NCBI RefSeq assembly: GCF_964213995.1
Contig: NC_135808.1
Location: forward strand, 67,270,001 to 67,334,000
DNA: 64,000 bases
DNA from: Mustelus asterias
Lineage: Eukaryota
Direction of reading: 5' to 3'
This document shows, piece by piece, positions 14,544-61,948 of this stretch. The position numbers and the translations under genes are program-made. Each line of letters opens with the position of its first letter. Position 1 is the stretch's first letter. The notes under the pieces are model-generated. The model was not told the DNA's origin. It searched no databases and was given only the letters and a program-made list of their open reading frames with translations.

Positions 14544-14691
14544 TGATGTGGAGAACAGTGTCTTTATATGCCCTGTTTGTGAACAGAATTCCCACTCACC
14601 TGAAGAAGGAGCTTAAGGCTCCGAAAGCTTGTGGCATTTGCTACCAAATAAACCTGTTGGACTTTAACCTGGTGTTGTTAAACTTCTTACT
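14544..14691 (+). mobile_element. Penelope-like family A insertion 1 (11 nt of inverted tail plus partial pLTR with hammerhead)
   Basis: Starts TGATGTGGAGA and ends CTTCTTACT. TSD ATATAAGAACACA at 14531-14543 and 14692-14704. Confidence 0.9.
14597..14633 (+). ncRNA. Minimal type-I hammerhead ribozyme motif in PLE pLTR
   Basis: CAC-CTGAAGA-A-GGAGC-TTAAG-GCTCC-GAAA-GC-TT-GTG: intact core, 5-bp stem II, stem I CAC/GTG, palindromic AGCT in place of stem III. Confidence 0.75.
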
Positions 14692-26127: not shown

Positions 26128-26475
26128 ATCATAGAAACCCTACAGTACAGAAAGAGGCCATTTGGCCCATCGAGTCTGCACCAACCACAATCCCACCCAG
26201 GCCCTACCCCCATATCCCTACATATTTTACCCACTAATCCCTCTAATCTACACACCCCAGGACACTAAGGGGCAATTTTAGCATGGCCAATGAACCTAAC
26301 CCGCACATCTTTGGACTGTGGGAGGAAACCGGAGCACCCGGAGGAAACCCACGCAGACACGAAGAGAACGTGCAAACACCACACAGACAGTGACCCAAGC
26401 CGGGAATCGAACCCAGGTCCCTGGAGCTGTGAAGCAGCAGTGCTAACCACTGTGCTACCGTGCCGTACCGTACCG
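26128..26475 (-). mobile_element. Full-length, young HE1-type V-SINE
   Basis: Complete head, V-domain and CR1 tail. TSD TGGTC at 26123-26127 and 26476-26480. Confidence 0.95.
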
Positions 26476-26784
26476 TGGTCCTTATCTCAATTCTCTTGTG
26501 GGAGCTTGCTATGCACAAATTGGCTTTCACGTTTCCTACATCACAACAGTGGTGACATTTCAAAAGGTCTTAATTAGCTGAGGTTTTGAATGGCATCTTA
26601 AATTCCTCTTTCTTTCACATAGTAAGATTGCACAATTAGCAAGTGAAAGGAATAACCAAATAATTTGTTTTCGGTTCTTTTCAAAATATGCCGTGGGATT
26701 TTTTTTTTAACATCAATCCAAATTGATTTGGTAGGAGCTCAATTTCATGTCTTATTTCAAAGAAAAACATTGTTGGAGATACAA

Positions 26785-26923
26785 TGGACTCGGTTCTCCA
26801 ACCTCATCTGTGGCTGGGATTCTCAGGTCCTGTTGTGGTGAACAGAGATTTAGCGGCGTGCCGAATTCTCTGTTCTTGCTGGCAGTGGTGGCGGAATATG
26901 AATGGCCGGAGAATTCCAACCCA
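26785..26923. mobile_element. MITE-like element
   Basis: Imperfect TIRs TGGACTCGGTTCTCC / GGAGAATTCCAACCCA; similar to the elements at 36291 and 47823. Confidence 0.5.
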
Positions 26924-28217
26924 TATCTCCAAGTTTACAGCTTTCATGTGCTGAAATCTGGAGTGAGAATTGAAACCCCCTGACTCTGAGAATGAGCTAC
27001 CAAGTAAGTATTGGGAATGATTTGTCATATTGATGAGTCTCCCCATATCCAGGGTCTTTTGGGCTGAAATTGTACTTTACCTGGTATTAACTCAAATCAT
27101 TGAGAGATGGTTTCCTGGAGAGTGTCTCGGGGGATTTAGTCTTCTGGGTTATTCTTGTGTTTTGGGGCGCACCACGTAGGGAGAGACGCAACAGTATAAG
27201 TACATATTTATGTCCTGGAAATGTTTCGATGTCAAAATAAAACCTGAAGATATAAGACTGGTCATTATCCAAATGTTTCCTGATTAAAACACGGGGTTAA
27301 CGTTCACTTTGGGGATGCTGACTGATTTGTGCATTTGTAGTATTTTATGTTTACATTTTAGATTTCCTGAATTATTTTCTCTTTTTTGTTTGCAGCATCT
27401 GTTTATCTTTTACTAAACCATTTCATTAAATGATCTATGTGCTCACTAAGTATGGTGTTGACATGCCAGAAATCCCTCAAGTTCTTGCTGAAGCCGTGGA
27501 AGGTGTTGAATTCTGACAGGAGGAATTTAATTCTGAAGTGAAATTTTGATGGGATCACTAATTATCAAGTCCAGCTAATTAGACCTTCATTTTTAATTCC
27601 TCTAAATGTTAAGTAACTAATAAAAGCATTTGGTGTCCCATTACTCGACATTCCATGTTTGCTAATGCTCGGCAGAGTGCTCAAAGGTTGTCATGCAAAC
27701 TACATTTTTTCTGATTTTTTTTTTGTTTCAATAATCTGTTGACTCTTTTCAATGATTCGGGTTCTGCTTCAAGTTTATCAAAGTTACTTTGTGGTAAGTG
27801 GTTGCAGTGATTGGATAGGGCTTGTGCTGTAGCATGTTTCTAATTTGTAACTCATGTTGTTTGTCTTCAAATCCCTTCATGGCCTACCCCACCTCACTAC
27901 CTCTGTAAACCTCAAATTGTGGTCAATTTTCCAGGCCCCATTAATTCTAGACCTGTTACACCATTTATCGTCTGATTTTTCTGCCACTAACCCTTCCCTA
28001 CATTTTTTCCACACTACAGGGCAGCTCAGGTAAAAGCAGGATGAAGGCCTGAGTTTTAAACATTGCTGCTTCTTTTTGGGAACTATAATTTTTCCTGTAG
28101 ATTGAAATGCGCTACATTCTTGGATCATCTTCGAAGAATTACCTTGGAATGTTTTCAGGTTGAAACTGTCCCACGACTGAGAACAACGTGAATGCAGCTG
28201 GACACAATTTTGATTTG

Positions 28218-28558
28218 TCATAGAAGTCATAGAAACCCTACAGTACAGAAAGAGGCCATTCGACTCATCAAGTCTGCACCGACCACAATCCCACCCAGGC
28301 CCTCCCCCCATATATTTTACCCGCTAATCCCTCTAATCTACACATTCCAGGACACTAAGGAGCAATTTTAGCATGGCCAATCAACCTAACCCGCACATCT
28401 TTGGACTGTGGGAGGAAACCGGAGCACCCGGAGGAAACCCACGCAGACACGAGGAGAATGTGCAAACTCCACACAGACAGTGACCCGAGCTGGGAATCGA
28501 ACCCAGGTCCCTGGAGCTGTGAAGCAGCAGTGCTAACCACTGTGCTACCGTGCCGCCC
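28218..28558 (-). mobile_element. Full-length HE1-type V-SINE
   Basis: Near-identical to 26128-26465; 5' end GGGCGGCACGGTAGCACAGTGG. Confidence 0.95.
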
Positions 28559-28704
28559 TAATTAATTTGTGGAAATGTGCTCATCGGGGCAAGTTTTTTT
28601 TTGTCTTTCTATAATACTAATGCCAAACCCTAACTGTTCAGTTTTATACAAGTTCGGTTTACATCTTTCTAACCTATGACAGATTTGACTATAATTGACC
28701 CAAT

Positions 28705-29044
28705 ATCATAGAATCCCTACAATGCAGAAGGAGGCCATTCGGCCATTTGCACCTGCACCGATAACAATCCCACCTGGGCTTTATCCCCGTAACCCCACAT
28801 ATTTACCCTGCTAATCCCGCTAACCTAGGCATCCCTGGAAAACTAAGGGGCAATTTAGCATGGCCAAAGCACCTGACCTGCTCATCTTTGGACTGTGGGA
28901 GGAAACCGGAGCACCTGGAGGACACCTACACAAACACTGGGAGAACATGCAACTCCACACAGACAATGACCGAAGTTGGGAATCGAACCCAGGTCCATGG
29001 AGCTGTGAGGCAGCAGTGCTAACCACTGTGCCACCATGTTGCCC
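28705..29044 (-). mobile_element. HE1-type V-SINE (more diverged)
   Basis: Head, V-domain and CR1 tail are all present. Confidence 0.92.
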
Positions 29045-30765
29045 ATTGGGTTTGATGTGTGAGGAACAGAAAATATCCTGGCAAGGGCTTAATGGCAGGA
29101 CTTCATTAGCATTGCTTTGTTTATTGCCTGTCCACTGGTCAAACTGTCCATTTGGCTGGGGGTAGGTGGGGGCACTGGGGAACACCCGTGGCAGGAGGCT
29201 GCAGCTGTGGGCCCCTTGGGAACAGTCACTGAGAAATTGAGAGGAGAGAGAGGCCCACAATTGAGAAGAGGCCAATGGATCCATTGAGGGTGCAATAGGA
29301 GCACTTCTGCCCCACAAGGAACAGGACCATGGAGCCAGCAAATCGTGCCTCCCTTTCAAAGCAGAGTTTCCCAACCCGAGGAAATCAATCAGCAACAGTA
29401 AGTTTTAAATCTGGCTCCCAGTCACATTATGTGATCATGATTTAAATATTTTAATGACGTGTCCTGCCTTGGATCGTGATATCCGGTGCTGTTTTAAAAA
29501 GAAAATGGCAGATGGCATTTCATTTCCTGTCCTTTTTTAAACCCCCTCACCCCTCCAAAAAATAACCCCATCCATCCATTGCTGGGGTTAATATGCCTGA
29601 ATCCTTTTGAGCACTTTGGACCTGAGCTGTATGTATTCAGTGCAGGAGAGATGTTAAAAGTTAACTAACTGACACAGTATTGAGCGATTTGTAATCTGTG
29701 CTGACAACTCATACAGATTGCAGATTGCTGCCTGCTCTCGAATGGCAGGGGTTAACGCTGGTCACATCCCTGTTCTCTGTGATGGAGCTTTGGAAAGTTA
29801 AAGGAACAAACCTGTTTAGAATGTACATTGCATCTGTAAGGATGCTGGTATGTGTCTGGATGAACTGCTTGGTTGTGCATTAAAATGTTGCACGTATTAC
29901 CCAATATCCCTCTGGGACATGGCATCAGTTATTTTATGATGCAGTGCAAGCTGTAACAAAGTGGGAGCAGTAAAAGGTGAAGCGTTACCCATTCACCTCC
30001 TATACACTATATAGAACCAATGAGCCCTTTAGTGACAGTAGGAGGTGTTTTTTATTAAAGTTTTTAAAAAGTCATTCATAATTTCCAATCAAACCCCTTT
30101 TTACCTACAAGCCAATAAAAGTGTCAGTTTGAAACTGCAAGCACTTGGAACCTCTTTCTTATGTAAATATTGTGCAATTGACAGCATAGATCAGAGAGTC
30201 AGAGCTCTCCCTGGGGCTCAGGACTTTGAATGATTTCTGGGTTATCAGCAAACCTCTATGTATTTCTTTGGAAAATTGGAGGAGGGTGGAAATCTTGGAG
30301 GGTTGTCAGCCTGGAAAAGTTTACAGAGAATGAGAGAGGCAGCACTAACGGAAGAATTTTAAAATCAAGCTGCTGCCCTACCAGGGAACACTGCAGGACT
30401 GCGAGCACAAGGGCAATGGGTAACAAAGGCACAAATGCTAATTTCAGCAGCAGAGGAGCTGAGGCAGGGCTGAAGTTGGGCATCTCCAGTCATATAGGAT
30501 GTTAAAGCTTCAAACGATCTGCTTCAATCTCTGACATTGACCAGGGAGAGGGATGGAGCTGGTGAGCGCGAGCTATGATCATAAAGAATGAGACCGATTG
30601 GGAAAAAATGAAGCTTAATTTTCAATGTAATCTACCCAATAAGTAACATTTTCTCTTCCCTGTATTTATCCTTCTCCTGAAGAAAATGTTGCCTTGCTGA
30701 AATACAGTTCTTCACCACCTTCCCCAAACAGCCATATTTATTTGGGAATCAAGATGAGACAAAAC

Positions 30766-31315: not shown

Positions 31316-31894
31316 ACCCTGGCTGCTGTCTTGTTCCCTAAACCAGGGGAATGAGATTAATTGTAATATATTCCACTTCCGCCCCAAGTGAAATCAGCGA
31401 ACTCTAGTAAATACTTGTGGTCAAATAGGAACCCTTCCTCTGTCTGACCCTGCTGATGTGGAGATGCCGGTGTTGGACTGGGGTAAGTACAGTAAGAAGT
31501 CTCACAACACCAGGTTAAAGTCCAATATGTTTATTTGGTAGCACAAGCCACAAGCTTTCGGAGCACTGCCCCTTTATCGGGTGAGTGGGAGTTGTGTTCA
31601 CAAACAGGGCATGTAAAGACACAAACTCAATTTACAAAATAATCATTGGAATGCGAGTCTTTACAGGTAATCAAGTCTTAAAGGTACAGACAATGTGAGT
31701 GGAGAGAGGGTTAAGCACAGGTTAAAGAGATGTGAATTGTCTCCAGCCAGGACAGTTAGTGAGATTTTGCAAGCCCAGGCAAGTTGTGGGGGTTACAGAT
31801 GGTGTGACACGAACTCAAGATCCCGGTTGAGGCCGTCCTCATGTGTGCGGAACTTGGCTATCAGTTTCTGCTCAGCGATTCTGCGTTGTTGTGT

Positions 31895-32918
31895 TGGACT
31901 CGTGGCGAACAATCATTGAAACAACGATATGATGACATCAACAAGTTCCATCCCACCATCAGACTCACCATGGACTACTGTCCGGAATTGGTTGCATTCT
32001 TGGACACACGCATCTCCATCAAGGACGGTCACCTCAGCACTTCACTGTACCGCAAGCCCACGGATACCCTCACGATGCTCCACTTCTCCAGCTTCCACCC
32101 TAAACACGTTAAAGAAGCCATCCCCTACGGACAAGCCCTCCGTATACACAGGATCTGCTCAGATGAGGAGAATCGCAACAGAAACCTCCAGACGCTGACA
32201 GATGCCCACATAAGAACAGAATATGGCGCTCAACTCATCGATCGACAGTTCCGACCCGCCACAGCGAAAAAACCGCACCAACCTCCTCAGAAGACAAACA
32301 CGGGACACGGTGGACAGAGTACCCTTCGTCGTCCAGTACTTCCCCGGAGCGGAGAAGCTACGACATCTTCTCTGGAACCTTCAACATGTCATTGATGAAG
32401 ATGAACATATCCCCACACCCCCAATTCTTGCCTTCAAACAATCGCACAACCTCAAACAGACCATTGTCTGCAGCAAACTACCCAGCCTTCAGGAGAACAG
32501 TGACCACGACACCATACAACCCTGCCACAGCAACTTCTGCAAGACGTGCCGGATCATCAACATGGATGCCATCATCTCACGTGAGAACACCATCCACCAG
32601 GTACATGGTACATACTCTTGCAACTCGGCCAAAGTTGTCTACCTGATACGTTGCAGGAAAGGATGTCCTGAGGCATGGTACATTGGGGAGACCATGCAGA
32701 TGCTACGACAATGGATGAATGAACACCGTTCAACAATCACTAGGCAGGAGTGTTCCCTTCCAGTCGGGGAACACTTCAGCAGTCACGGGCATTCAGCCTC
32801 TGATCTTCGGGTAAGTGTTGTCCAAGGCGGCCTTCACGACACATGACAACGTAGAAACTGATCGCCACATGAGGACAGCCTCAATCAGGATCTTGGGTTC
32901 ATGTCACACTATCTGTAA
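31895..32918 (+). pseudogene. Truncated, frameshifted Penelope polyprotein (RT C-terminus/thumb, Cys-rich linker, GIY-YIG endonuclease)
   Basis: INKFHPTIRLTMD..VAFLDTRISIKDGHLSTSLYRKPTD..HPKHVKEAIPYGQALRIHRICS. After a frameshift near 32270: PCHSNFCKTC and VVYLIRCRKGCPEAWYIGET..LRQWMNEH. Confidence 0.92.
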
Positions 32919-33148
32919 CCCCCATAACAACTTGCCTGGGCTTGCAAAATCTCGCTAACTGTCCTGGCTGGAGACAATACACATCTCTTTAACCTGTGCT
33001 TAACCCTCTCTCCACTCACATTGTCTGTACCTGTAAAGATTTGATTACCTGTAAAGACTCACATTCCAACCATTATCTTGTAAATTGCCTTATCTTGTAA
33101 ATTGAGTTTGTGTCTTTATATGTCCTGTTTGTGAACAATACTCCCATT

Positions 33149-33183
33149 CACCTGAAGAAGGGGCAGCGCTCCGAAAGCTTGTG
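33149..33183 (+). ncRNA. Minimal type-I hammerhead ribozyme motif
   Basis: CAC-CTGAAGA-A-GGGGC-AGC-GCTCC-GAAA-GC-TT-GTG. The inverted-arm copy (~31550-31584, minus) has a mutated core, CCGATAA. Confidence 0.75.
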
Positions 33184-33280
33184 GCTTGTGCTACCAAATA
33201 AACCTGTTGGACTTTAACCTGGTGTTGTGAGACTTCTTACTGACCCTGCTGAGCCATCAGGTTATATTTTAAACCTAAAT

Positions 33281-40327: not shown

Positions 40328-40448
40328 TGATGTGGAGATGCCGGCGTTGGACTGGGGTAAGCACAGTAAGAAGTCTCACAACACCAGGTTAAAGTCCTGG
40401 TTAAATAAACCTGTTGGACTTTAACCTGGTGTTGTGAGACTCCTTACT
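40328..40448. mobile_element. Penelope-like family A insertion 3 (121-bp mini fold-back)
   Basis: 37-nt tail, 33-nt inverted arm, TGGTT filler, 46-nt arm. TSD ATCTTGCACTC at 40317-40327 and 40450-40460. Confidence 0.92.
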
Positions 40449-40984
40449 GATCTTGCACTCTGGCCAGTGGTCCCTTTTGCTTTTGGGTTAAGAAATCATA
40501 ATTTGCACATACTTCATAAATACCTGCAGTCAACTCTTGTCGTCTCTGGCTGGTGTTTCAGCTTATTCGCAACAGTATTTATGAATTATTAATAATGGAC
40601 CAGATATTAAATGATGCTGAATACTAACTGGGCTATGAGTCCTTCTTAGCAGATAGCTTGCCTAATATTCCAAGCACAGATTGGCAACATTTGGAATTTG
40701 TTATCTTCAAGGTCCTTTGGACTGAACGTCCTTTCTGAGAAATGAAATGCCTTTTGACAATAGGTTGCCAACTTGCTTTGATCTGTGAGTTACCACTTGT
40801 AGATCTCAGTAATCTGCTGGAAAGGCTTTGTTCTGAACAGTAACTTCAGGTGCTTTGTCTACCACTACCTAGAGGAAATACCTGATGTACAAAAAATTTG
40901 ACTTGCTGTCCTTTCCCGTCTAAGAGATTAACTATGAACATGCCAGATCATCAGAAATCATTTAACACCCCAGTAGGTAGAAAT

Positions 40985-44882: not shown

Positions 44883-45640
44883 TACAACTTGTACTTGTCC
44901 AGCGTTTTTAATGTAATAAAATGTCTCAAGACATTTCATAACACGAAATATGACACAAACCACAAGAAGGTCTTGGATACAACTCTTAGGTGAAGGGGAT
45001 CAAGGAGGCGACATGGTGGCACCGTGGTTACCACTGCTGTCTCACAGCTCCAGGGACCTGTGTTCGATTCCCAGCTTGGGTCACTGCCTATGTGGAGTTT
45101 GCACGTTCTCCCCATGTCTGCGTGGGCTTCCTCTGGGTGCACCGGTTTCCTCCCACATGTCCAAAGATGGGTGGGTTAGGTTGATTGGCCATGTTAAATT
45201 GCTTCTTAGTGTCCCGGGATGTGTAGGTTAGAAGGATTAGCGGGGTAAATGTGTGGGGTTGTGGGGATAGGGCCTAGGGTGCGATTGTTATCGGTGCAGA
45301 CTCTATGGGCCGAATGGCCTCCTTCTGCACAGTAGGGTTTCTATGAAAGGATATAGGGGGAGGGGAAGGCAGGAGTAGGCTATTGAGTTGGATGATCAGC
45401 CATGATCATAATGAATGGTGGAGCAGGCTCGAAGGGCCGAATGGCCTACTTCTATTTTCTATGTTTATTAGGGTAGATGACCAAAAGCTTGGTGCAAGAG
45501 TTAAGATTTTGAGAGTGACTTCAAAGGAGGGAAGTGAGGGAATCCCAGAACCTGGGATCTAAGCAGCTGAAGGTACGGCCACCAATGATGGAGCAATTAA
45601 CATAGCGCAGATATCCTAGAAGGTTGTGGGCTGGAGATCA
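44883..45640 (-). mobile_element. L2-type LINE 3' fragment hosting a CR1 3' fragment (~44985-45466, +) that in turn hosts an HE1 SINE
   Basis: L2-like GATGACCAAAAGCTTGGT...GCAGCTGAAGGTACGGCCACCAATG; CR1 end GGCTCGAAGGGCCGAATGGCCTACTTCTATTTTCTATG. Confidence 0.6.
45007..45346 (+). mobile_element. Full-length HE1-type V-SINE
   Basis: Complete element; TSD AAGGA at 45002-45006 and 45347-45351. Confidence 0.93.
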
Positions 45641-54645: not shown

Positions 54646-55430
54646 GATGCAGAATTTTGAGAATGATGCTAAATGTCCAGCTAGTCTGAAAATGGGAGAG
54701 TTCCTGATCCGTTTTTTGGGCGTGTTTTCACGCCCAATCCTACGCACCTAGTCATTGACAAAATGGTGTAGACTGTTTCTAGCTGCTGCAGGCAGTGGGC
54801 AGGGCTTAATTTGCCAGCCAGCCTGTAGAGAGAGCTACTGCGCATGTGCAGACCTCTGATGTTGCACATGCTCAATTGTAAAAGCAGGGGTCTGCAGCAG
54901 GCAGCCTCCATCAGCTCCCCTCTCCCACCACCCACCCCACAATCACGGGGGCCAGCAGCCAATCACGAGCCCCACAACCCATGGGCAAGTAGCTCCGCTG
55001 CCCAGACCGATTGCGCTCACCCCCCCCCCCCCCCCCCCACCCAAGTCCAATCCCATTGCAGAGTGCCAGCATGGGCAGTGCCAAGGTGCCAGGCTGGCAC
55101 TGCCGAAGGGCACCCTCTCTTGCCCTCGGCCTCCCCGGGGGATTCAATGGCTTCCAGTTCTACCGGCGAGGCCATAAAGACAAATGAGCCCAGACGATTG
55201 AACACCGGGTGCACTAAACAGATGCAAATGAGGATTGTAATATTTTTAAATAATTTATTCAGCCTCTTGTCCATTTCCAGTGAGAGGTTGACCTCGCCGG
55301 AAATCCGTCTCTCATAACATCACGAGAGCCAAGGAAATTGGGCGTGATCCTGATTTCCCAGCTTTTGCGTGATTTTACCAGCTCACTCCGCCCACTGATG
55401 GGTGGGGCGAGCTGGTAAAATTCCGGCCCT
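54646..55430. mobile_element. Larger non-autonomous DNA transposon (Harbinger-like ends)
   Basis: GCAGAATTTT start and GGTAAAATTCCGGCCCT end; GC-rich body with GGCAGTGCCA/TGGCACTGCC motifs, loosely similar to 59095 and 63494. Confidence 0.5.
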
Positions 55431-55453: not shown

Positions 55454-56218
55454 AAAGCGCTTGCATTTATACTATGTGTTCATGACCGTTGTAACATCCC
55501 CAAGCATTTTATTGTCCAATAAATACCTTCAAGGTTAGTCACTGTTGGATGTGGGAAATGATGTGGAGATGCCGGCGTTGGACTGGGGTAAACACAGTAA
55601 GAGTTTTAACAACACCAGGTTAAAGTCCAACAGGTTTATTTGGTAGCAAATGCCATGGCATTTGCAACCAAATAAACCTGTTGGACTTTAACCTGGTGTT
55701 GTCAAAACTCTTACTGGATGTAGGAAATGCAGCAACCAGTTTACACAGCAAGGTCCCACAATCAACAATGAGGAAAAGGCTTGGATTTTCCAACCCCCAT
55801 GATGAGTTTTCCGGCAGCGGAGTCTGCTCTCCATCGGCCACCAGCGGGATCTTCTGTCTTGCTGTAATGCACGTCCATTTGTGTTGCTGGCCGGCCATAC
55901 CACCGAGGAACCCACCTCCAGGGGTCGCCGGCGAGAAGGGCCAGAAATCCCGGCCATTGACTGGTTCAGTCGTTTCAGTGACTATTAGTGAGGACGCCTC
56001 TGTTCTTCTTATAGTGCCATGGGACCTTCCAGACTCAACTGAGCGGATGGATGAAGCGTCGGTTTAATGTCTCGGCTGAAAGATTGCGGCTCTGACAGTG
56101 TAGCACTCCTTCAGTGCTGCACTGAAATATCAGCCTAGAATTTGAGCTTCAGTCTGTGAAGTGGGGCTTTAACTTACAAACTTCTGATTCAGAGATATGA
56201 GTCTTACCACTAAGCCAC
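55454..56218 (-). mobile_element. Near full-length DeuSINE interrupted by a PLE hairpin and a MITE (55777-55956)
   Basis: Tail GCTTGCATTTATAC; Deu domain ATAGTGCCATGGGACCTT...CTGACAGTGTAGCACTCC; head TACCACTAAGCCAC. Confidence 0.8.
55559..55715. mobile_element. Penelope-like family A insertion 4 (37-nt tail plus 120-bp loop-less palindrome)
   Basis: Arms 55596-55655 and 55656-55715 with 2 mismatches. TSD GGATGTGGGAAA / GGATGTAGGAAA at 55547-55558 and 55716-55727. Confidence 0.93.
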
Positions 56219-56824
56219 TTTTTAAAAAGGCAGACAATAGCTCTTTTAGGGAAAATAAGGACCTGCCCCTGGCAGGAATGCTAATTGAAAAAACAAGTCC
56301 TGGAATGATGGCACATACAGTGACTAGCGGACAAATAATCTAGACCGACATGACCATGATCTGTATGATTCAAATACTGCATGATTGTAGAGCAGGCCTG
56401 TTTTAAAATTGCATTAATGAATGGCCAATGTGGACCTGGTAATTTGAGGCATTCCATTCATGTATTTTGGCAGCTAAATGATCAATCACTCTTTGTGTAA
56501 CGTGAATAAACCGCACCCCCATTCCAGCACTATACTTTTTGGATGAGTCACTAATGGAGATTCCTGATAATCAGGTCTTTGCGAAATGAACCTTAACAGC
56601 TCTGAGTTTAGAAAAAAAAGGTAAAAGTTGGCCAACTTCACAGTTGAAGTTCTCTTCAGTGTAGCACCATTTATTGGTTATCTGTGTTATCACAACACAG
56701 AATGGTGACCATAGTGACCGTGTTTCCACCTTTGATCGACTCTTTGGACAAATTAAGGACTGTTTTAATTTCAGATGAATTGTCAAGTGTGGAGTTTGAG
56801 TGTTAAGCGTGCTGTTTTAATACC

Positions 56825-57127
56825 AGCACAGTGGTTAGCACTGCTGCCTCACATCGCCAGGGATCCGGATTCAATTCCAGCCTCGGGCCCCTGTCTGTGT
56901 GGACTTTGCATGTTCTCCCTGTGTCTGCGTGGGTTTCCCCCAGGTACTCCGGTTTCCTTCCACGGACCAAAGATATGTGGGTTACATTGATTGGCTGTGA
57001 TAAGTTGCCCCTTAGTGTCAGGGGGATTAGTAGGGTAAATACATGGGGTTATGGGGATGGGGCCTGGGTGGGATTGTTGTCAGTGCAGGCTCAATGGGCT
57101 GAATGGCCTCCTTCGGGAATGTTATGA
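56825..57127 (+). mobile_element. HE1-type V-SINE
   Basis: Head, V-domain and CR1-type tail with a small deletion. Confidence 0.9.
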
Positions 57128-57949
57128 TAACCTGAGATCGGCTTCTACAACTTTGCAGTAAATTTTTAATCTGATTAGTCAGCCAGATACTTAATAAGAA
57201 TAAGATTTCCTTGTTTGTTTTGGTCTGAGTCAAGTGTTTATTTTGGACGTCAACCTGAAGCAACCCTTTTTCTAGCCTGTGAGCCAAGAAAAGGGAGTGG
57301 GGGAATAAAGCAGACCAAATCAGTTTTTTTCCCCGTGATGTGTTTGTCTTTCTTAGCATGAGCTGTAGCGATTACTGGGAGTGGGGATGTAGATTGTGCT
57401 TGGCAGCTCTCTGCTCACAGTACAGATCACGTGCATTCCCGATCAAGCAGGGCAGGGCTGCAGGAAGCTCTTGGAGAAATTAGGTGGAAACCTCATTTGA
57501 GATATGAATGGGTGCCTTCTGTGCTGCAACCAATCTGTGTTAATATAGTGAAAATGCCCTTTTTGTAAGGATCCAAAAAGCAGCAAAGAGCTCGTCATGA
57601 GGCAACCCCTCTGCATGCATTCAAAATTTAAAACAAATGCACCCAAATCTAATTTTTCTTTGTAGGCCGCTACATGGGAGTAATTATTTAAATTAACATG
57701 TCTTTCAAGGGTCACACCTTACTTCTGAAGTGTTTAACTTGAAGACTAATGAAGAGAGCACTCTGTAACCCACACTGTGTGTTATCTCAACATTATTATA
57801 ATTATGCATCGCTTGCTCGGAAGTTTTTCCCTATCTGGCTGCTGCACTCTAAGTATGATGTGGAGATGCCGGCGTTGGACTGGGGTAAGCACAGTAAGAA
57901 GTCTCACAACACCAGGTTAAAGTCCAACAGGTTTATTTCGTAGCAAATA

Positions 57950-57986
57950 CCATAAGCTTTCGGAGCAATGCTCCTTCGTCAGATGG
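57950..57986 (-). ncRNA. Minimal type-I hammerhead ribozyme motif
   Basis: Reverse complement reads CCAT-CTGACGA-A-GGAGC-ATT-GCTCC-GAAA-GC-TT-ATGG. Confidence 0.78.
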
Positions 57987-58160
57987 AGTGGTCTCTTCTC
58001 AAACAGGGCACAGACACAGAAATCAAATTACAGAATACTGATTAGAATGCAAATCCTACAGCCCCATTTAAGACCTGGCTGGCTGTAGAGATTTGCATTC
58101 TAATCAGTATTCTGTAATTTGATTTCTGTGTCTGTGCCCTGTTTGAGAACAGAGACCACT

Positions 58161-58197
58161 CCATCTGACGAAGGAGCATTGCTCCGAAAGCTTATGG
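58161..58197 (+). ncRNA. Minimal type-I hammerhead ribozyme motif
   Basis: CCAT-CTGACGA-A-GGAGC-ATT-GCTCC-GAAA-GC-TT-ATGG; stem I CCAT/ATGG. Confidence 0.78.
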
Positions 58198-58529
58198 TAT
58201 TTGCTACCAAATAAACCTGTTGGACTTTAACCTGGTGTTGTGAGACTTCTTACTGCACTCTAAGTACACAAGGTTTGAAAAAAAGAGATGTATTTGTTAA
58301 GCGTATCCATCTCACTGAGGAGGCTTGAGGCACATCCTCAGCCAACAACCTGCCCTGAAAACGTTGCGCACATTTTGACAGCTGTGATAAATTCCACCAA
58401 AGCAGCTGAGACAATCTGTAACATTCTAAAGCAATCAACAGCATTCCAAATCAATCAACACACAACATTCTTTTAAAAAAAATCAATTAGCCTATTATCC
58501 CAATGTTAATGGGCCCTTTTTTTCTAAAA

Positions 58530-59675: not shown

Positions 59676-59858
59676 TTGTTCCGACTTCCTGCTCTTTCCC
59701 CATCATATTTATTCCTGGTTTGGATGGTTTGGGGTCCAGTCTTTCTCTAGGGTGACTCTGCCCTGCTTCATGCTAATTTAGGAAGCTGAGGTGAGGTGCA
59801 AACAATGACTAGCTAAATGTGTAGCCAGTTATGCTCTGCTTCAGAAAGTCACTTTTTC

Positions 59859-60092
59859 CAACACGTTCCAACAGAAGCTGACCCAACTGCCCTGCTGCAG
59901 TGAATTAATGTTGGGCAACTTTCATCTCTTGTTTCTCGTGGGTTTTTTTAAGGTTGCCCAAGTGACATAAACTTTCGTAACTTTTTAATATCCTGATACC
60001 TTTTTGGCAAATGCAATATATATCCAGGCTATGACAGTAGTATTAGTAATCTATTTATGTTAATTATTTACTGACCAGTAATTGGGAGCAAT
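59859..60092 (+). repeat. 234-bp unique segment duplicated at 60919-61152
   Basis: Direct repeat offset by 1060 bp with 3 substitutions (59990/61050, 60063/61123, 60076/61136). Confidence 0.97.
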
Positions 60093-60100
60093 TTCTAAAA

Positions 60101-60192
60101 TAACTTGATGAAATGAAGGGGAAGGTTCAAAGTTCATTTTCATGTTTAACTTGATGAAATGAAGGGAAAGGTTCAAAGTTCATTTTCACGTT
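60101..60192 (+). repeat. Tandem duplication, 2 x 46 bp
   Basis: TAACTTGATGAAATGAAGGG(G/A)AAGGTTCAAAGTTCATTTTCA(T/C)GTT occurs twice. Confidence 0.95.
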
Positions 60193-60422
60193 TAGCTTGG
60201 CACAGACCAATGCTGGGAAGTCTCATTTTAAGCTGAACTTTAGGCTCTCTTAATGAGCACATATCTCAATCCAAAGTTCAAACACGAAAGCATTTGCCTT
60301 TCATGAAGTGAAGGTTGTTGTAAGTATGTCTGTATCCCTCCCCCAAAGAATAGCTAACATCTGGGGGCAAAATCTGCACTTAAGAGTCAGACTTGGCTTG
60401 GTGGGAGTATTCTCACTGGAGA

Positions 60423-60555
60423 AGTGGTAGAGTAGTGGTCCAGAGGCTCCAGGCTGTCTGAGGACACAGGTTCAAATCCCATCATGGCCTGGTGAAATTT
60501 AAATTCACAATTAAAAATCTGGAATTTAGCAACTGTGCAACCATCATCAATTTGT
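60423..60555 (+). mobile_element. Head fragment of the 17474-family tRNA-SINE
   Basis: TCCAGAGGCTCCAGGCT...GGTTCAAATCCCATCATGGC...AAATCTGGAAT. Confidence 0.65.
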
Positions 60556-60562
60556 GATTTAC

Positions 60563-61331
60563 GGGTGGCACAGTGGTTAGCACTGTGGCCTCACAGCGCC
60601 AGGGACCTGGGTTTGATTCCCAGCTTGGGTCACTGTCTATGCGGAGTTTGCACGTTCTCCCTGTGTCTGCGTGGGTTTCCTCCGGGTACTCCGGTTTCCT
60701 CTCAGGTGCTGGTTAGGTGCATTGGCTGTGCTAAATTCTCCCTCGAGTGCCAGAGTGTTGATTTGATTGATTGTCACATTTATTGGTATTCAGTGAAATG
60801 TGTTATCAGTAACCCCCACAGCTTTCCCCCTGATCTTGCAGAATCTCACTAGCTGTTCTGTCTGGAGACAATACACATCTCTTTAACCTGTGTTGAATGC
60901 TCCCTCAACCCACATTTGCAACACGTTCCAACAGAAGCTGACCCAACTGCCCTGCTGCAGTGAATTAATGTTGGGCAACTTTCATCTCTTGTTTCTCGTG
61001 GGTTTTTTTAAGGTTGCCCAAGTGACATAAACTTTCGTAACTTTTTAATGTCCTGATACCTTTTTGGCAAATGCAATATATATCCAGGCTATGACAGTAG
61101 TATTAGTAATCTATTTATGTTAGTTATTTACTGACAAGTAATTGGGAGCAATGCTATACAGACAAAGCATACCGTTCATAAATAAGAAAGGAGAGAGTGC
61201 AGAATGTAGTGTTACAGTGATAGCTGTAGGGAAAGATCAATTTAATGCGAGGTAGGTCCATTCAGAAGTCTGATGGCAACAGGGAAGAAGCTATTTTCAC
61301 AGTAACTTCATTGCAGTGTTAATGTAAGCCT
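60563..61331 (+). mobile_element. V-SINE type B split by a Rex1/Babar 3' fragment (60758-60802 and 61153-61293, -)
   Basis: SINE runs to ~60757 and resumes at TTTTCACAGTAACTTCATTGCAG (~61294). The LINE pieces match 4224-4410. Confidence 0.85.
60803..60916 (+). mobile_element. Internal PLE family A pLTR fragment, no termini
   Basis: Reverse complement of 61592-61706 with 1 substitution and 1 single-base indel. Confidence 0.9.
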
Positions 61332-61393: not shown

Positions 61394-61948
61394 AGTAAGA
61401 AGTCTCACAACACCAGGTTAAAGTCCAACAGGTTTATTTGGTAGCAAATACCATAAGCTTTCGGAGCACTGCTCCTTCGTCAGATGGAGTGGATATCTGC
61501 TCTCAAACAGTGCACAGACACAGAAATCAAGTTACAGAATACTAATTAGAATGCGAAACTCTCCAGCCAGCCAGGTCTTAAAGGTACAGACAATGTGGGT
61601 GGAGGGAGCATTCAACACAGGTTAAAAGAGATGTGTATTGTCTCCAGACAGAACAGCTAGTGAGATTCTGCAAGATCAGGGGGAAAGCTGTGGGGGTTAC
61701 TGATAATGTGACATAAATCCAACATCCCGGTTTAGGCCGTCCTCATGTGTGCGGAACTTGGCTATCAGTTTCTGCTCAGCGACTCTGCGCTGTCGTGTGT
61801 CGTGAAGGCCGCCTTGGAGAACGGAGAAGGAGCAGCGCTCCGAAAGCTTATGGTATTTGTTACCAAATAAACCTGTTGGACTTTAACCTGGTGTTGTGAG
61901 ACTTCTTACTGTGCTTACCCCAGTCCAACGCCGGCATCTCCACATCAT
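61394..61948 (-). mobile_element. Penelope-like family A insertion 6 (long arm 61394-61822, short arm plus 37-nt tail ~61825-61947)
   Basis: TSD GACAGAGAATAA at 61382-61393 and 61949-61960. The long arm includes the ORF end (..RRVAEQKLIAKFRTHEDGLNRDVGFMSHYQ*). Confidence 0.95.
61451..61487 (-). ncRNA. Minimal type-I hammerhead ribozyme motif
   Basis: Reverse complement reads CCAT-CTGACGA-A-GGAGC-AGT-GCTCC-GAAA-GC-TT-ATGG. Confidence 0.78.

Follow-up and report, generated by a model that had tools for sequence, protein, structure and literature searches.

The stretch of DNA analysed here, the window, covers 64,000 nucleotides of Mustelus asterias (NC_135808.1, positions 67,270,001 to 67,334,000), and one small insertion in it poses a puzzle: Why do the two arms of a palindrome meet, with no loop between them, at the very point where a hammerhead ribozyme is predicted to cut the RNA of the element from which they derive? 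Our answer, to which we give a probability of about 0.7, is that both arms stop at this predicted cut because two reverse transcriptases copied one and the same RNA, which had probably been cleaved already by its ribozyme.

The original prediction placed two loop-less arms at 55596..55715, and the palindrome is indeed there: 59 of 61 positions are paired, with two mismatches and no loop, around a centre lying between 55655 and 55656. The box drawn around it nevertheless covers only part of the insertion, which as a whole (55559-55716) is a dead 158-bp head-to-head unit of a Penelope-like element (PLE). Its left arm extends 36 nt past the palindrome, to 55559, so that the outer ends lie 36 nt apart, and this one-sided part is the 'tail' of PLEs; a 15-nt target duplication with one mismatch brackets the unit. 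Its parts, in window coordinates and with element positions counted from the predicted cut, are the following.

55546..55560, plus strand: target-site duplication, left copy, overlapping the element end by 2 nt
55559..55656, minus strand: long arm, element positions +1..+98, reaching from the predicted cut to the far 3' end of the tail
55559..55594, minus strand: 36-nt one-sided extension (the PLE 'tail'), lying between two reverse transcriptase start sites by analogy with those described in the relevant part of PMC11167929
55655..55656, no strand: AT shared at the turning point, a 2-nt microhomology forming +1/+2 of both arms
55655..55716, plus strand: short arm, element positions +1..+62
55715..55729, plus strand: target-site duplication, right copy, with one mismatch

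The subfamily sequence of this copy around the predicted cut is GAAAGCUA^AUGGCA, and CTA^ATGGCA is present in all six stored read-through copies that match the left arm identically over +2..+62. Both arms reach +1 exactly if the shared AT is counted in each, ends at +2 or +3 being also possible. The claim that the arms stop at the predicted cut is borne out to this extent, while the triplet originally given, CUU, has to be corrected here to CUA on the evidence of the six relatives. A palindrome as such is expected at this place because the element inserts head to head, and exact short inverted joints of the element number 3,793 genome-wide; its turning point, on the other hand, is not chance. 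Of the 685 arms of subfamilies A and B stopping at +1 that are discussed below, the first 100 contain six loci, listed on both strands, with the same loop-less joint; four of these loci were retrieved and all four have the same build, and extrapolation leads to about 40 such loci in the genome. The locus itself is ordinary, and its interest lies in the statistics of the family. A microRNA precursor was also considered for the hairpin and rejected, all matches being below the gathering score and reflecting the palindrome only. A separate 48-nt hairpin lies at 55373-55420 of the window, about 140 nt to the left of the insertion.

Five sister insertions in the window share this build, being arranged head to head with one outer end 36-37 nt shorter, and all six insertions combine an inverted 5' copy, a one-sided tail of 30-40 nt and a target duplication, which measures 14-16 nt in five of the six by script and 13 nt in the sixth by eye. 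Their main features are listed below.

14597..14633, plus strand: read-through minimal hammerhead, predicted cut 14630/14631, inside the sister insertion at about 14544-14691
31454..33242, no strand: sister insertion in which both arms read through, carrying the 3' part of the open reading frame (ORF)
32214..32843, plus strand: ORF fragment with a CX4CxxC linker and a GIY-YIG-like endonuclease (VVY..C..C..YIG), without a Pfam hit
40328..40449, no strand: sister insertion in which both arms end well downstream of the cut
58161..58197, plus strand: read-through minimal hammerhead, predicted cut 58193/58194, inside the sister insertion 57856-58255
61394..61948, no strand: sister insertion in which both arms read through

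The two longer read-through copies cited in the original prediction are present where it had them, with GAAA at 14623 and 58186; in the insertion at about 14544-14691 the long-end arm has 11 nt and the short-end arm about 135 nt. The window also contains two direct repeats of 238 nt (98% alike) that stand 1,060 nt apart at 59855-61152, with an internal antisense fragment of the element (approximately 60803-60916) between them, and a dense family of tRNA-like SINEs (e.g., 26128-29047, 45012-45349, 56819-57135), which we take to be of the shark HE1 type.

The element is an endonuclease-bearing (EN+) PLE, probably of the Neptune type to judge from its protein motifs. Its reverse transcriptase matches Pfam RVT_1 (E 7.6e-08, 32.8 bits against a cutoff of 29.6, copy L145) and has the YIDD motif, and the fragment 32214-32843 shows a C-terminal GIY-YIG domain with two cysteines between the motifs (VVY..C..C..YIG). 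Ahead of the endonuclease lies the sequence CHSNFCKTC, an instance of the CX2-5CxxC linker that PMC8557442, in its clade descriptions, names as a feature of Neptune. A Pfam search for the endonuclease found nothing in this fragment or in copy L124; in the Atlas, the best named clusters for the 32214-32843 domain score 0.96, with GIY-YIG annotated on 17-40% of cluster members. Partial tandems, or pseudo-LTRs, in which the 3' end of one copy precedes the ORF of the next, are found at L340, L341, L347 and L361. The family is very abundant, tens of thousands of copies being countable in the 3.68-Gb genome to which all our genome-wide counts refer.

A minimal type I hammerhead (min-HHR) of published type lies upstream of the tail. 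We surveyed 202 stored copies selected for a full core plus the extra base, and in this selected set G10.1-C11.1 is present in 185 and GC at 15.2/16.2 in 193, helix I has 3-5 bp in 186 and helix II 5-7 bp in 174, and the predicted cut triplet is CUU in 125, CUA in 53 and CUC in 18. Helix I covaries between subfamilies, CCAU/AUGG versus CAC/GUG, in the sense of paired variants rather than of a covariation statistic. A single copy folded as one strand is predicted to form helices I and II, two copies cofolded gave alternative intermolecular pairing and no clear dimeric hammerhead, and Rfam returned no hammerhead among 11 matches at E<=1. The cut site in all subfamilies is a position predicted from min-HHR features. 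The family shares with the metazoan PLE hammerheads described in the core sections of PMC4209133 the CUGAnGA core, the extra base before 10.1, the G10.1-C11.1 pair, the loop-less palindromic 15.2/16.2 and the short helix I; it differs from them in that helix I has 3-4 bp and helix II mostly 5-7 bp. Internal deletions removing most of the hammerhead occur at L122 (around 5863, via a short GCTT repeat), L421 and L423.

Since the subfamilies differ in their distance from cut to tail, they provide an internal control for the position at which arms stop. Our genome-wide counts cover +1 and upstream control positions, a strict stop requiring three non-matching bases upstream of the stop position, and the downstream view comes from 50 short joints. 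The cleanest case is subfamily D (GAAAGCTT^GTGTGG), in which, out of 49,966 arms that reach +1, strict stops number 1,148 at +1, 363 at -1 and 125 at -3, with those at -1 corresponding to the expectation for a chance T following a +1 stop (383-492). The check originally proposed, on the truncation points of many genomic arms, thus yields a sharp excess at +1 of the predicted cut at the level of the family, and the caveat that the palindrome was a single copy and perhaps a coincidence is removed by these 1,148 arms. Subfamilies A and B have the cut 2 nt nearer to the tail and show 685 strict +1 stops among 49,395 arms, under a pattern that leaves out the commonest class among the 3,793 short joints; their control at -2 is not low (331), being unclean through contamination by +1 stops with an added T or A. 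A script applied to the first 50 of the 3,793 short joints places the end of the longer arm at +1/-1 in 26 of them, a figure that drops to 20-22 once mis-assigned rows are removed and that compares with 10-12% expected under independent uniform ends; in these joints a -1 call rests on one A and is indistinguishable from +1. Of the 100 arms in the same joints, 36 end at +4..+6, mostly shorter partners. The commonest joint of subfamily B also matches A at -1, with B-type tails in seven of eight such joints, and microhomology may inflate its number.

This evidence has to be qualified with respect to the older subfamily E (CUC^GUGAUUCC), which shows no footprint, even if the test is weak either way: its stops number 124 versus 31 under a pattern that excludes the likeliest cut-type joints of E, and the 20 cases inspected consist of mutated read-throughs and helix-I microhomology, with no both-short joint among the 20 and with 8 of 10 partners crossing the cut. 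The footprint is also a minority trait. Among unselected arms, 75 of 94 read through, 10 end downstream and 9 reach approximately +1 without reading through, six of the nine being true +1/+2 stops by eye, two of which belong to the 55559-55716 locus. Strict +1 stops make up 2.3% of subfamily-D arms, and in the unselected sample the figure is 6 in about 84; roughly nine arms in ten read through, and cleaved RNA would be the minority template. Of seven unit-length arms, found among the first 30 of 647 tail-to-ORF copies, four read through the upstream site, three stop short and none lies at +1; therefore, full-length templates apparently do not owe their 5' end to the cut. Arm ends form a second, broad cluster at -30..-49, the 5' edge of the ribozyme, which comprises 27 of 138 arms, duplicates included (e.g., L138, L162, L207, L213); a TATA-like word stands some 25-30 nt upstream of it in two of the three copies viewed.

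The behaviour of the partner arms adds a second line of evidence. Of 30 D arms stopping at +1, 29 have a partner, and in 0 of these 29 does it extend across the cut, as compared with 7 of 11 when the stop is at -3 (9 of 20 being without a partner), a difference with a Fisher p of 1.3e-4 on a laxer call of 1/29. In subfamilies A and B, partners cross in 5 of 23 +1 stops versus 12 of 14 unselected arms, and in unselected D arms they cross in 19 of 19, these unselected counts including some insertions entered from both arms. Arm ends are also coupled in general: of 27 pairs in 1.264 Mb of unselected DNA, 9 have ends no more than 20 nt apart (null 3.6, p 0.002), and of the 16 pairs with both arms past the cut, 7 have ends no more than 40 nt apart (null 1.9, p 0.0009), which favours one RNA being copied by both enzymes. 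Part of the coupling at +1 is of this general kind, as short arms pair with short ones anyway, but the step from 7/11 to 0/29 over three bases is not. In 30 D loci (L166-L195) viewed by eye, it is 22 times the long-tail arm and 8 times the short-end arm that stops at +1. Many of the +1 joints in this set bear short templated insertions, a kind of scar attributed to polymerase theta.

Template jumps were seen as well. At L245 (= L356) a jump to about +212 separates two successive +1 stops, and at L187 a jump leads from +1 to about +170, although most jumps (about 12 of 14) begin elsewhere than at +1. Jumps land repeatedly at approximately +187..+191, within the start of the ORF (L343, L346, L351, L354, L360, L364), a zone that is a possible RNA 3' end or preferred site of re-entry. 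In L337 (around 1590-1700), an arm compared with a natural D copy over some 105 nt shows 18 substitutions, 15 of them T>C, that is, antisense A>G, a pattern expected from adenosine editing of an antisense or double-stranded RNA template.

The likely scheme behind these observations would begin with the endonuclease opening the target with a stagger of 13-16 nt, after which both target ends would prime on one RNA, at the two start sites of its tail, and both cDNAs would extend to the 5' limit of this shared template. The cDNA ends might then be trimmed, often by a few bases, and joined via short matches. With an RNA cut by its ribozyme, the limit would be +1 and both cDNAs would run off there, leaving a tiny dead palindrome; most copies would instead derive from RNA intact across the ribozyme. 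That the cDNAs ran off a ribozyme-made 5' end was already the original prediction, which the sharp excess at +1 in the family, its shift with the cut and the partners not crossing it now make probable as a reading of these genomic copies, with subfamily E, devoid of a footprint, on the other side.

Could another obstacle have stopped both enzymes at the same base? A folded, dimerised or protein-bound hammerhead might stall both reverse transcriptases at about +1 on intact RNA, and such a roadblock would account for the position as well as for its shift with the ribozyme and, provided that both enzymes travel on a single RNA, for the coupling too. An intermolecular helix III would start at -2, and the ribozyme of PAc, the Poseidon element of Anolis, requires the element's protein according to the relevant results of PMC11167929. 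Yet a stall should rather fall at the entry of helix I (+4/+5) or at helix II (about -9) and be leaky, whereas none of 29 partners passes +1; moreover, the jumps from +1 to the 3' region of the RNA resemble run-off from a physical end, even if they are only 2 of about 14. We consider the roadblock unlikely. It is more doubtful that +1 represents a transcription start within the pseudo-LTR, with short arms primed at a tail lying near the capped 5' end of the mRNA. PLE transcripts do begin inside the upstream pLTR, as stated in the transcript mapping of PMC2377424, and +1 is a purine in all subfamilies. An extra G before a transcript start could arise from copying a cap, and by eye 39 of the first 100 D rows have a G before +1, as against just 6 in the first 100 A/B rows, and many of the D cases are partner-arm sequence. 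The start in D. virilis lies 46 nt before an intron whose end abuts the ribozyme, hence upstream of the ribozyme, by the maps in PMC2377424 and PMC4209133. The cluster at -30..-49 (27 of 138 arms) is a better candidate for a transcription start than +1, at which none of the seven unit-length arms ends.

A hotspot of microhomology is, by a shade, the least credible of the alternatives: either random cDNAs would be trimmed to AT/CAT or helix-I matches near +1, or a single cDNA would fold back on itself, as in the self-priming proposed in the discussion of PMC3846280. The 2-nt overlap of the 55559-55716 joint is what such trimming would leave, B-type joints gain one more matching base, and the helix-I class of subfamily E gives +1 ends with read-through partners (4 of 20). 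But the +1 stops of subfamily D meet many different partner ends, blunt joints and insertions among them, and the longer, 6-nt palindrome just upstream is seldom the centre (1 of 50 joints). Fold-back cannot yield a short-end arm longer than the long-end arm, as found in 14544-14691 and 31454-33242, nor can it supply the tail where the short-end arm sits at +1 (8 of 30).

The original prediction held that read-through needs an uncleaved tandem or a re-ligated circular template; RNA intact across the predicted cut is required indeed, but an ordinary uncleaved transcript suffices and nothing points to re-ligated circles. Uncleaved RNA explains the read-through, so circles are not needed. A re-ligated circle and an uncleaved tandem RNA would leave the same DNA copies, so the two are indistinguishable from the genome, and these copies speak neither for nor against a circular template. 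The uncleaved-transcript reading agrees with the in vitro experiments of PMC11167929, in the sections cited, where uncleaved RNA is the dominant template.

The architecture of PLEs and their ribozyme are already published. As in the complex insertions of EN+ PLEs that PMC3846280 and PMC8557442 treat in their passages on structure, an inverted, 5'-truncated copy is joined head to head with a direct copy, and the one-sided tail of 30-40 nt, the target duplication, the junction palindromes and the C-terminal GIY-YIG-like domain are common to both. In those passages the palindromes are explained by self-priming on an antisense template, with no link drawn to a ribozyme; in our family, by contrast, arm ends are most frequent at the predicted cut and the two arms are coupled. 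The text of PMC4209133 that deals with function proposes hammerhead cleavage in PLEs, and possibly circles, without in vivo evidence; the present family gives a genomic trace of likely cleavage and no sign of circles. In PAc, as reported in the main experiments of PMC11167929, the protein cuts and extends both target strands in vitro from two start sites, which bound the tail as they would here, and uncleaved RNA dominates as template in both systems. Hammerhead cleavage is dispensable for insertion in vitro according to the same experiments, and no RNA-seq reads are reported there to begin at the cut, whereas a few percent of genomic arms stop at the predicted cut in our family. The nearest precedent is the HDV-like ribozyme of R2 (PMC3774820), in which the ribozyme-made 5' end of the RNA marks genomic junctions joined by chance microhomology; there an assayed cut defines full-length elements, while here the predicted cut of a dimer-type hammerhead marks a minority of short, dead copies. 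The clade review PMC8557442 calls the function of the hammerhead unclear where it discusses it, and our search of the open-access literature, main texts only, found no report of a ribozyme-cut footprint in PLEs.

In broader terms, we lean, at slightly better than even odds, towards regarding the family as a genomic record of min-HHR cutting in the germ line, in which each insertion arises from two reverse transcriptases that start from both cut target strands and share one RNA as their template. A base-precise peak combined with partner coupling, across tens of thousands of copies, offers a direct handle on hammerhead cutting by PLEs in vivo, and it favours an origin of the inverted PLE structure from two primers and one template over the published idea of antisense self-priming. 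If the reading of the family as such a record is true, templates would not be matured by ribozyme cutting; rather, a few percent of insertions would be cut short by it and left as tiny dead palindromes. The in vivo activity of the ribozyme could then be ranked among subfamilies on the basis of DNA alone.
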